From the NCBI RefSeq assembly GCF_003334385.1, contig NZ_QOWN01000005.1: 64,000 nt of DNA. One strand, written 5' to 3'. The position numbers and the translations under genes were made by a program. Every line of letters begins with the position of its first letter. The stretch's first letter is position 1. A model generated the notes under the pieces. It was not told the DNA's origin. It did not search any database and saw only the letters and a program-made list of their open reading frames with translations. The DNA is from Escherichia coli. Lineage in GTDB: Bacteria; Pseudomonadota; Gammaproteobacteria; Enterobacterales; Enterobacteriaceae. Below, in pieces: positions 52,576 through 60,802 of the stretch.

Positions 52576-54562
<1,987 letters not shown>

Positions 54563-54592: not shown

Positions 54593-55735
54593 ATGGATTT
54601 TAATTTAAATGATGAGCAGGAACTGTTTGTCGCCGGTATCCGCGAACTGATGGCCAGCGAAAACTGGGAGGCCTATTTTGCCGAGTGCGACCGTGACAGC
54701 GTCTACCCGGAACGTTTTGTCAAAGCACTGGCGGATATGGGTATCGACAGTCTGCTGATCCCTGAAGAGCACGGTGGTCTGGACGCGGGGTTTGTTACTC
54801 TCGCCGCCGTGTGGATGGAGCTGGGACGTCTGGGGGCACCAACCTATGTACTGTACCAGTTGCCGGGCGGGTTCAATACCTTCCTGCGCGAAGGCACACA
54901 AGAGCAGATCGACAAGATTATGGCTTTCCGCGGCACCGGTAAGCAGATGTGGAACTCAGCGATTACCGAACCGGGCGCGGGCTCCGACGTGGGTAGCCTG
55001 AAAACGACTTATACCCGTAGAAATGGTAAGATTTATCTTAATGGTAGTAAGTGTTTTATTACCAGTAGCGCCTACACCCCGTACATCGTGGTGATGGCGC
55101 GCGACGGGGCTTCTCCGGACAAACCTGTCTACACCGAATGGTTTGTTGATATGAGCAAACCGGGCATCAAAGTGACCAAACTTGAGAAGCTCGGTCTGCG
55201 TATGGATAGCTGCTGTGAAATCACCTTTGACGATGTGGAACTGGACGAGAAAGACATGTTCGGTCGGGAAGGTAACGGCTTTAACCGCGTCAAAGAAGAG
55301 TTCGACCATGAACGTTTCCTGGTAGCCCTGACCAACTACGGTACGGCGATGTGCGCCTTTGAAGATGCGGCGCGCTACGCCAACCAGCGCGTGCAGTTTG
55401 GCGAGGCTATTGGTCGTTTCCAGTTGATTCAGGAAAAATTCGCCCACATGGCGATCAAATTAAACTCCATGAAAAACATGCTGTATGAAGCAGCGTGGAA
55501 AGCAGACAACGGCACCATCACCTCTGGCGATGCAGCGATGTGCAAATACTTCTGCGCCAATGCGGCATTTGAAGTGGTGGATAGCGCAATGCAGGTGCTG
55601 GGCGGTGTCGGGATTGCGGGCAACCACCGCATCAGCCGCTTCTGGCGTGACCTGCGTGTAGACCGCGTTTCCGGAGGATCTGACGAAATGCAGATCCTGA
55701 CGCTGGGTCGTGCGGTGCTGAAGCAATACCGCTAA
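54593..55735 (+). CDS. caiA: Crotonobetainyl-CoA reductase (acyl-CoA dehydrogenase family)
   Basis: 380-aa [38 protein letters not shown]. Confidence 0.95.
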
Positions 55736-55744
55736 GTCCGTGCG

Positions 55745-55830
<86 letters not shown>

Positions 55831-55845
55831 TCATGCGCTACATAA

Positions 55846-57081
<1,236 letters not shown>

Positions 57082-57154
57082 ACGCGTGGCGTCAGTCGGC
57101 TTGCCTGACTAGCGCCCGCCCAATAACAAACGAACAAAAATGGATAGAGGTGCA

Positions 57155-58708
57155 ATGGATATCATTGGCGGACAACATCTACGTCAAATGTGGGACGATC
57201 TTGCGGACGTTTACGGTCATAAAACGGCGCTGATTTGTGAATCCAGCGGCGGAGTCGTTAACCGGTATAGTTATCTTGAGTTAAATCAGGAGATTAACCG
57301 CACGGCAAACCTGTTTTATACGCTGGGGATTCGCAAAGGCGACAAGGTTGCACTACATCTCGACAACTGCCCGGAATTTATCTTTTGCTGGTTCGGGCTG
57401 GCAAAAATTGGCGCGATTATGGTGCCGATTAACGCCCGCCTGTTACGCGAGGAAAGCGCGTGGATCCTGCAAAATAGCCAGGCGTGCCTGCTGGTAACCA
57501 GTGCGCAATTCTATCCTATGTATCAACAGATTCAGCAGGAAGATGCCACTCAATTGCGGCACATTTGCCTGACAGATGTGGCACTTCCCGCTGATGATGG
57601 CGTGAGTTCGTTTACTCAACTGAAAAATCAACAACCTGCCACCTTGTGCTATGCACCGCCGCTATCGACTGACGATACGGCGGAAATTCTCTTCACCTCC
57701 GGCACCACCTCCCGACCGAAAGGTGTGGTGATTACCCATTACAACCTGCGCTTCGCTGGATATTACTCCGCCTGGCAGTGTGCACTGCGTGACGATGACG
57801 TCTACCTGACGGTAATGCCTGCGTTTCATATCGATTGCCAGTGTACTGCGGCGATGGCGGCGTTTTCTGCCGGGGCCACCTTTGTGCTGGTCGAGAAATA
57901 CAGCGCCCGCGCCTTCTGGGGACAGGTACAGAAGTACCGCGCCACCGTTACCGAATGTATTCCGATGATGATCCGTACCTTGATGGTGCAGCCGCCTTCA
58001 GCGAACGATCGGCAACACCGCCTGCGGGAAGTGATGTTTTATCTCAACTTGTCGGAGCAGGAAAAAGATGCGTTTTGTGAACGCTTCGGCGTTCGCTTGC
58101 TGACGTCTTATGGGATGACGGAAACCATTGTGGGCATTATCGGCGATCGCCCTGGCGATAAACGACGCTGGCCGTCGATTGGTCGAGCGGGGTTTTGCTA
58201 CGAAGCGGAGATCCGCGACGATCACAATTGCCCGCTCCCGGCAGGTGAGATCGGTGAAATCTGTATTAAAGGCGTACCAGGGAAAACCATCTTCAAAGAG
58301 TATTTTCTCAACCCGAAAGCCACTGCGAAAGTGCTGGAAGCTGATGGCTGGCTGCATACCGGCGATACCGGATACCGCGACGAAGAAGGCTTTTTTTATT
58401 TCGTCGATCGCCGCTGCAATATGATCAAACGCGGTGGCGAGAATGTCTCCTGCGTGGAGCTGGAAAATATCATCGCCACCCATCCGAAAATTCAGGACAT
58501 CGTGGTTGTGGGTATTAAAGATTCGATTCGCGATGAAGCCATCAAAGCATTTGTGGTGCTGAATGAAGGTGAAACATTGAGCGAAGAGGAATTTTTTCGC
58601 TTCTGCGAACAAAATATGGCGAAATTTAAAGTGCCCTCTTATCTGGAGATCAGAAAAGATCTGCCACGTAATTGCTCGGGGAAAATAATTAGAAAGAATC
58701 TGAAATAA
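57155..58708 (+). CDS. caiC: Crotonobetaine/carnitine--CoA ligase
   Basis: ORF track frame 57140..58708; 517-aa protein from [27 protein letters not shown]; AMP-binding motif [10 protein letters not shown]. Confidence 0.93.
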
Positions 58709-58816
58709 ATGAAACGGCAGGGAACTACCCTGCCAGCTAATAATCACGCTCTAAAACAATATGCATTTTTTGCAGGAATGTTGTCGTCCCTGAAAAAGCA
58801 AAAATGGAGAAAAGGA

Positions 58817-59602
58817 ATGAGTGAATCATTACATCTGACCCGCAATGGATCAATTCTGGAAATTACCCTTGATCGCCCAAAAGCGAATGCTATTGATGCA
58901 AAAACCAGCTTTGAAATGGGCGAAGTATTTCTAAATTTCCGTGACGATCCGCAATTACGTGTCGCCATTATTACCGGTGCCGGAGAGAAATTCTTTTCCG
59001 CGGGCTGGGATTTAAAAGCGGCAGCAGAAGGCGAAGCACCGGATGCTGACTTTGGCCCGGGTGGTTTTGCGGGATTAACCGAAATTTTCAATCTCGACAA
59101 ACCAGTTATCGCAGCTGTGAACGGCTACGCCTTTGGCGGCGGTTTCGAACTGGCGCTGGCGGCAGATTTTATTGTTTGTGCCGATAACGCCAGCTTCGCC
59201 CTGCCGGAAGCCAAACTGGGCATCGTTCCTGACAGCGGCGGTGTGCTGCGTCTGCCGAAGATCCTGCCGCCTGCCATCGTCAATGAAATGGTGATGACCG
59301 GCAGACGAATGGGCGCAGAAGAGGCGCTGCGTTGGGGGATAGTCAACCGCGTGGTTAGCCAGGCGGAACTGATGGATAACGCCCGCGAACTGGCGCAGCA
59401 GCTGGTTAACAGCGCTCCGCTGGCGATTGCGGCGCTGAAAGAGATCTACCGCACCACCAGCGAAATGCCGGTAGAAGAAGCGTATCGCTATATTCGCAGC
59501 GGCGTGTTGAAACACTATCCGTCGGTTCTGCATTCGGAGGATGCCATTGAAGGGCCGCTGGCGTTTGCCGAGAAGCGCGATCCGGTGTGGAAAGGACGTT
59601 AA
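58817..59602 (+). CDS. caiD: Carnitinyl-CoA dehydratase (enoyl-CoA hydratase family)
   Basis: ORF track frame open from 58709; annotated 261-aa protein from [27 protein letters not shown]; crotonase fold. Confidence 0.88.
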
Positions 59603-59607
59603 CAACC

Positions 59608-60198
59608 GTGAGCTATTACGCCTTTGAGGGGTTAATTCCGGTGGTTCACCCGACGGCGTTTGTCCATCCCAGTGCCGTCTTGATTGGCGATGTGATTGTG
59701 GGAGCCGGTGTCTACATCGGCCCACTCGCCTCACTGCGTGGTGACTACGGGCGGTTGATCGTGCAAGCGGGAGCCAATATTCAGGATGGCTGCATTATGC
59801 ATGGCTACTGCGACACTGACACCATTGTTGGGGAAAACGGCCATATCGGGCACGGAGCGATCCTGCATGGTTGTGTGATTGGTCGCGATGCATTGGTCGG
59901 GATGAACAGCGTGATTATGGATGGCGCGGTCATTGGCGAAGAGAGCATTGTTGCCGCCATGAGCTTTGTCAAAGCGGGCTTTAGCGGCGAGAAACGCCAG
60001 TTGTTGATGGGTACGCCAGCCCGCGCTGTACGCAGTGTTAGTGACGACGAGTTACACTGGAAACGGTTGAATACCAAAGAGTATCAGGATCTTGTCGGGC
60101 GCTATCATGCATCGTTACATGAAACGCAGCCGTTGAGGCAAATGGAGGAAAATCGCCCCCGTTTGCAGGGGACAACGGATGTGACGCCTAAACGGTGA
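59608..60198 (+). CDS. caiE: Carnitine operon protein CaiE (hexapeptide-repeat/gamma-carbonic-anhydrase-like)
   Basis: ORF track frame from GTG 59587; GTG 59608 after aagga RBS gives (M)[33 protein letters not shown]; start choice uncertain. Confidence 0.85.
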
Positions 60199-60201
60199 TC
60201 T

Positions 60202-60377
60202 TGCCGGATGCGGCGTAAACGCCTTATCCAACTCTGCTGGAGAGCAACCGTAGGCCGGATAAGATGCGCCAGCATCGCATCCGGCGATAGCTGTCGGATG
60301 CGGCATAAACGCCTTATCCAACCCGGCTGGAGAGCAACCGTAAGCCGGATAAGATGCGCCAGCATCGCATCCGGCGA
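60202..60377. repeat. Two tandem ~86-bp BIME units (each an inverted REP pair) between convergent caiE and caiF
   Basis: Unit A 60202-60287 and unit B 60292-60377: t(g/t)(c/t)cggatgcggc(g/a)taaacgccttatccaac(t/c)c(t/g)gctggagagcaaccgta(g/a)gccggataagatgcgccagcatcgcatccggcga. Confidence 0.85.
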
Positions 60378-60406
60378 CCAGGTCGCACGGTATCATCGAA
60401 ATGACA

Positions 60407-60802
60407 TTAACGACGCATACTCTTTGACAACATCATCTGCCACTTCTGCTCGCGGTTAAGTTCCGTGAGCGGAACGGCAGGAATACTCGGTGTCTTTCTT
60501 ACGCCGACTAATTTTTCCCGACTGTTATTGCGCAGGCGCGCGTAAATTTGTTCATCGATATCGACCACTTTAACCAGTCGCTGACACTGGCATCCCCGCC
60601 CTTCCAGCTTATTAGGGATCATCTTAACTTCGCAGCTTATTTCTGTGACTTCCGACAGAATATAAGTCAGGGTATTAACCGCCTTGCTGTGTTCAATATC
60701 GAAATGAATAGAGATCTCTCTTGCTATCACCCACCGATTTTCAGCCATCATCCATTCGGCGATTAACAAGTAGAGTGGTTTTTCAACATATCCTTCACAC
60801 AT
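60407..60802 (-). CDS. caiF: Transcriptional activator of cai/fix operons
   Basis: ORF track frame 60407..60907; 131-aa protein from MCEGYVEKPLYLLIAEWMMAENRWVIAREISIHFDIEHSKAVNTLTYI. Confidence 0.9.
   Translation of the reverse strand: MCEGYVEKPLYLLIAEWMMAENRWVIAREISIHFDIEHSKAVNTLTYILSEVTEISCEVKMIPNKLEGRGCQCQRLVKVVDIDEQIYARLRNNSREKLVGVRKTPSIPAVPLTELNREQKWQMMLSKSMRR

Follow-up and report, generated by a model that had tools for sequence, protein, structure and literature searches.

We found that the 108 nucleotides between caiC and caiD in an Escherichia coli cai operon are very probably an intercistronic spacer that the caiTABCDE mRNA leaves untranslated, and that caiD starts at the ATG at 58817 by means of its own Shine-Dalgarno (SD) sequence. 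All coordinates refer to the window (i.e., the whole 64,000-nt stretch of E. coli DNA that was analyzed), in which the operon runs on the + strand in the order caiT, caiA, caiB, caiC (which ends at 58708), caiD, caiE. The features of the operon and of the caiC-caiD junction are as follows.

53048-54562, + strand: caiT
54593-55735, + strand: caiA
55864-57081, + strand: caiB
58706-58708, + strand: caiC stop codon TAA, the end of the RefSeq caiC CDS
58709-58711, + strand: ATG in frame with caiD and directly adjoining the caiC stop (TAAATG), at which the former 297-aa annotation began
58709-58816, + strand: caiC-caiD intercistronic spacer of 108 nt (the 36-codon "extension"), unannotated in RefSeq and in K-12
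58716-58734, + strand: hairpin 1, GGCAGGG-AACTA-CCCTGCC, its 7-bp stem starting 7 nt past the caiC stop
58773-58792, + strand: core of hairpin 2, CAGGAA-TGTTGTCG-TCCCTG, extendable by U-run/A-run pairing to about 58762-58800
58806-58809, + strand: SD sequence GGAG, 7 nt before the caiD ATG at 58817
58817-59602, + strand: caiD, crotonobetainyl-CoA hydratase, 261 aa (RefSeq and K-12 annotation, NF002936, homology)

The frame upstream of caiD is open by chance-level expectation

The preliminary description of this DNA had drawn attention to 36 open codons running upstream of caiD as far as the caiC stop. These are indeed present: the ORF spans 58709-59602 and encodes 297 aa, and the translation quoted there for the extension, continuing into MSESLHL, matches that of the ORF exactly. 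The purine-rich stretch described before the caiD start was also found, as GGAG at 58806-58809 followed by AAAAGGA and then the ATG at 58817. The other two frames of the 108-nt spacer contain three and two stops. Shuffling the 108 nt left a stop-free frame in 8% (mononucleotide) or 11% (dinucleotide) of sequences, and 36% of the 36-codon stretches across the window are open when all frames on both strands are counted. The open frame is within reach of chance and is statistically unremarkable.

The spacer is 41% G+C, and the median number of places matched by a 126-nt query covering it is one per E. coli genome. We rejected a reading of the spacer as a dispersed repeat of the REP/BIME type because it is single-copy per genome. 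A search of Rfam with 57500-60500 at a permissive E-value matched no family in the spacer, the only hit being naRNA4/REP at 60166-60375. A promoter scan found no internal promoter within the spacer; the sole promoter-like site (58661-58689) lies inside caiC and scores at the level of shuffled sequences.

CaiD homology and initiation signals begin at Met37 of the long ORF

The 297-aa ORF is already known. A 2007 carnitine review lists the E. coli proteins CaiC, CaiD and CaiE at 524, 297 and 203 aa, respectively, and those of Proteus at 518, 261 and 197 aa (PMC2131755), and the long ORF is thus the original published annotation rather than a new possibility. Over 1 kb, several RefSeq E. coli chromosomes match the window at 100% identity; in these, caiD is a 786-nt CDS from the equivalent of 58817 and the 108 nt are left unannotated. 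In K-12 MG1655, caiD (b0036) occupies 35377-36162 and encodes 261 aa; its protein accession, NP_414578.2, stands at version 2, indicating that the record was revised. An exact-sequence look-up places the 261-aa form, whose sequence is that of the UniRef cluster CAID_ECOLI, on at least 1000 contigs; the 297-aa form is confined to a minority of GenBank records, E. coli 042 (33 contigs) among them. UniProt P31551 presumably marks such long CaiD versions as erroneous initiation. The 297-aa ORF is a historical over-extension, since corrected, that survives in some GenBank records.

The neighboring genes show over-extensions of a similar kind. For caiE, an ORF runs from the GTG at 59587 to 60198 (203 aa) and overlaps the end of caiD, and the RefSeq start is the ATG at 59608 (196 aa). 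For caiC, an ORF runs from the ATG at 57140 to 58708 (522 aa), and the RefSeq start is at 57155 (517 aa).

Profile and structure comparisons place the start of the conserved protein at Met37. The NCBIfam equivalog NF002936 matches end to end, with profile positions 1-261 corresponding to residues 37-297 of the long ORF; the score of 562 bits (cutoff, 500) identifies the protein as CaiD and leaves residues 1-36 unmatched. Solved crotonase-family structures (PDB alignments) align to the long ORF from residues 37-45 on. The gene also occupies the position of caiD, between caiC and caiE in the caiTABCDE order on the + strand, and the same arrangement is annotated by RefSeq in an identical strain. 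Related loci were scanned with one genome per species, giving 80 loci from Escherichia to Alphaproteobacteria, and homology starts at Met37 in all of them save a few of the most distant, as an ATG followed by Ser-Glu or Ser-Asp (MSE/MSD).

Initiation signals were compared by computing anti-SD pairing over the 18 nt upstream of each ATG, with all ATGs of the window as the reference. The ATG at 58817 has a duplex of -6.4 kcal/mol, in the top 5% of window ATGs. The ATG at 58709 has a duplex of -0.9 kcal/mol, as good as which is found at 67% of window ATGs, and we detected no ribosome-binding signal there. Of 54 gammaproteobacterial orthologues, 51 have GGAG at -11 or -10, and the remaining three carry AGGA/GGAA-type motifs (AAGGA, AAGGA and GGAAGG). 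Furthermore, the 7-bp GC-rich stem of hairpin 1 starts 7 nt past the ATG at 58709, inside the initiating-ribosome footprint region. The ATG at 58709 is probably not a functional start, and the comparative evidence places CaiD initiation at 58817 with a conserved SD. The 108-nt gap, together with this SD, points to independent initiation at 58817 rather than stop-start coupling. The region had also been described as a possible untranslated coupling region, and the word coupling is only loosely right: the stop and the true start lie 108 nt apart and the start has an SD of its own.

In the searchable literature we found nothing relevant on CaiD N-terminal sequencing, start-site mapping or a stem-loop in the cai operon. 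A paper on a riboswitch screen names the operon only as the neighbor of an unrelated hit.

A different hairpin lies about 10-35 nt upstream of caiD in nine Ferrimonas and Shewanella loci. It has the form GAGTCAT-N3-5-ATGACTC, with variants that carry compensatory changes, and is separated by 4-6 nt from the GGAG SD downstream of it. The 5' arm resembles the SD and the 3' arm (ACTCC/ACTCT) resembles an anti-SD, making the hairpin a candidate SD-sequestering switch.

The spacer evolves as untranslated RNA

The preliminary description had named stops or frameshifts in close relatives as evidence against a longer isoform. We looked for such changes and found them, and of the two alternatives that it offered, an untranslated region between the genes is upheld and a longer isoform is not. 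Spacer length and the number of open codons upstream of Met37 are given below.

K-12: spacer 108 nt; 36 open codons
E. albertii: spacer 109 nt (frameshift); 19 open codons
E. whittamii: spacer 109 nt (frameshift), upstream ATG changed to ACA; 5 open codons
Escherichia sp. MOD1-EC7003: spacer 108 nt, CAA changed to TAA; 5 open codons
Strain SCPM-O-B-8794: spacer 108 nt; 19 open codons
Most Citrobacter, and Intestinirhabdus: spacer 51-55 nt; 1 open codon (19 in one Citrobacter MAG)
Salmonella arizonae, Phytobacter, Pseudocitrobacter and Cedecea: spacer 73-117 nt; frame closed or unrelated

None of the other Escherichia lineages examined (four non-coli lineages) has an open frame, and the equivalent of the ATG at 58709 is missing in E. 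whittamii, which has ACA, and in every genus outside Escherichia; neither the upstream start nor the open frame is conserved in related species. Within E. coli, haplotypes with one to four differences from the window keep the frame open in most of those sampled. A CAA-to-TAA change at codon 18 closes it in E. coli 2013C-4830, and the same haplotype is found in 2012C-4227. In 2013C-4830, caiD is annotated as an ordinary, non-pseudogene CDS despite the TAA in the extension. Only two exact matches to the TAA haplotype were found, and nearly all of the ~5,400 complete E. coli genomes appear to keep the frame open.

Differences from the window were counted at codon positions 1, 2 and 3, in that order, for caiD and for the spacer.

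Window versus K-12: caiD 0, 0, 11 (all synonymous); spacer 1, 1, 1
Window versus Escherichia sp. MOD1: caiD 3, 2, 37; spacer 3, 0, 2
Window versus SCPM-O-B-8794: caiD 4, 1, 35; spacer 4, 5, 4

In caiD, third positions account for 83 of the 93 nucleotide differences, and the change is synonymous in 84 of the 91 codons affected, whereas in the spacer, over the three comparisons, 13 of the 18 changed codons are non-synonymous or nonsense and 5 are synonymous. The extension shows no third-position bias and no coding-type substitution pattern. Because its changes fall evenly over codon positions, the spacer is without coding constraint, and in evolutionary terms the 108 nt behave as untranslated RNA. 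Spacer divergence within Escherichia is 4.6-12%, at or below the third-position divergence of the flanking genes (13-18%), which suggests some non-coding constraint. The upstream frame is open in E. coli because, in this lineage, no stop happens to fall in that frame of the short, A/T-rich spacer, and the ATG abutting the caiC stop would be an Escherichia-specific coincidence.

Insertions were seen at several junctions. In E. coli 2017.18.04CC (locus L089, NZ_AP027850.1 4163836-4164540), an IS1A insertion at the caiC end takes the place of the 3' end of caiC and of spacer nucleotides 1-21, so that the 5' arm of hairpin 1 is lost; caiD is still annotated as intact downstream. In Citrobacter sp. 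MGH106 (locus L018, 2325-2500) and C. amalonaticus S646 (locus L021, 2255-2500), insertions after hairpin 1 bring the spacer to 176 nt and 246 nt, respectively. These two insertions may be similar to ERIC/IRU repeats, e.g., CCCAGGAGCATAGATAACTATGTGAATTGGGTGAGCG.

A hairpin after the caiC stop codon is conserved in Enterobacteriaceae

The constrained parts of the spacer would be RNA and translation signals, i.e., hairpin 1, the less conserved hairpin 2 and the SD. Hairpin 1 folds with -14.6 kcal/mol in a 45-nt test window (z = -4.9) and recurs 6-10 nt past the caiC stop in every Enterobacteriaceae locus. Its stem sequences differ among these loci, the variants being GGCAGGG, GGTCGG, AGCGGCA, GGGTGAA and GGCGAGAG. 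Covariation was assessed on a 9-pair helix in 31 Enterobacteriaceae sequences from seven genera. Standard pairs fill 81% of cells, versus 27-53% when the partners are slid by 1-3 columns, and seven of the nine pairs have changes on both sides, i.e., compensatory conservation. The covariation score was reached by none of 500 shuffles, in a control that ignores relatedness, and RNAalifold independently predicts the core six pairs. At the level of sequence comparison, hairpin 1 is under structural constraint.

Hairpin 2 is more variable. Its stability is -9.8 kcal/mol in this strain versus -16.7 kcal/mol in K-12; an A.C mismatch weakens it in this strain's allele, and the hairpin varies among E. 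coli strains. The other Escherichia, Pseudocitrobacter and Phytobacter retain it with G.U or compensatory changes, the Citrobacter R56 group and S. arizonae have a weak form or none, and the 51-55-nt Citrobacter spacers have lost it by deletion.

This variability would fit a spacer that is neutral filler, with hairpins that derive from shared ancestry or from an old inserted element and with no function beyond the SD, an alternative that we consider possible but unlikely. Spacer length ranges from 24 to 274 nt with IS1 and large insertions tolerated, hairpin 2 varies within E. coli and is missing from many Citrobacter, and the shuffle control for hairpin 1 takes no account of relatedness. Against neutrality, the position and pairing of hairpin 1 are kept across seven genera even though the stems differ, the pairing falls away as soon as the partners are slid, and Escherichia spacers diverge no more than flanking third positions do.

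The stable GC-rich stem immediately past a stop codon could also be read as an intrinsic terminator or attenuator that cuts transcription into caiDE, or as an antisense terminator on the minus strand. On the minus strand, a consensus scan picks out a terminator-like site (58735-58715) that consists of hairpin 1 reversed and then the tail TTTCATTTAT. However, hairpin 1 is followed on the + strand by AGCTAATAATC, with no U-tract, and the terminator scan reports no + strand site. The minus-strand tail is the complement of the A-rich caiC end and is absent in Citrobacter, Pseudocitrobacter and Salmonella (i.e., it is unconserved outside Escherichia), and no gene is annotated on that strand at hairpin 1. 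We rejected the terminator reading because the U-tract is missing on the + strand, and we regard either form of it as highly unlikely.

Under the preferred reading, in which the spacer is untranslated and carries a constrained hairpin, hairpin 1 may, like the operon's other post-stop stem-loops, block 3'-exonucleases or mark a processing boundary that separates caiTABC from caiDE. Such a boundary would set the relative stability of the two mRNA segments, and the hairpin may in addition keep the caiD initiation region structurally apart from upstream coding RNA. From its position, its conservation and analogy with known elements, we infer that hairpin 1 may stabilize the upstream mRNA.

A reinitiated, longer CaiD is very improbable

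A minor 297-aa isoform would arise if ribosomes ending at the caiC TAA reinitiated at the ATG at 58709 and read on into caiD. TAAATG is a classic termination-reinitiation arrangement in which the ATG directly adjoins the stop and shares the caiD frame, almost all sampled E. coli genomes keep that frame open, and a terminating ribosome would presumably have partly melted hairpin 1 already; nevertheless, the ATG lacks an SD and faces the GC-rich hairpin 7 nt downstream, is lost in E. whittamii, and heads a frame that is shut both in the other Escherichia examined and in two E. coli strains with caiD annotated as an ordinary CDS and not as a pseudogene, while the spacer substitutions are non-coding in pattern and the 36 residues fall outside both the family profile and the crotonase fold. 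We give this isoform very little credence, and, if made at all, it would by these comparisons be unselected. A low-abundance CaiD made in E. coli alone, with a lineage-specific basic N-terminal tail of 36 residues produced by TAAATG termination-reinitiation, is very improbable; if true, the N-terminal extension would have arisen recently and de novo, with selection yet to act on it. A separate and more plausible proposal is that the conserved post-stop hairpin sets the expression ratio of caiTABC to caiDE.

Other cai spacers also begin with stem-loops

Every long cai spacer opens with a post-stop stem-loop. The caiA-caiB spacer (55736-55863) contains a REP/BIME-like palindrome pair of -56.5 kcal/mol, and the caiB-caiC spacer (57082-57154) has a hairpin directly past the stop, at about 57088-57116. 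Between caiE and caiF, Rfam naRNA4 (REP-derived nucleoid-associated RNA) matches at 60166-60375, with the best match on the minus strand at 60253-60323 (70.7 bits; gathering score, 59.5). The post-stop structures after caiA, caiB and caiC suggest that they segment the cai mRNA, which could matter for engineering the operon toward L-carnitine production.

Comparison with known systems

These results confirm the current 261-aa caiD start, which is a useful note for curation, and provide a worked example of how an open upstream frame can be told apart from real coding sequence. The conserved stem-loop past the caiC stop is an only mildly new item. The ORF at 58709-59602 is the same object as the old 297-aa CaiD annotation, and the current K-12, RefSeq and CAID_ECOLI entries have 261 aa. 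The junction resembles stop-start translational coupling in that the caiC stop abuts an ATG (TAAATG), but that ATG is not conserved beyond part of Escherichia and the real start lies 108 nt downstream. Polycistronic mRNAs can be stabilized by intercistronic REP elements and stem-loops, a case in point being the REP elements of the malE-malF spacer. Hairpin 1 differs from the malE-malF stabilizers in being single-copy and outside the REP family, with no Rfam match, but it resembles them in being a stable, GC-rich structure without a U-tract that sits just past the upstream stop.
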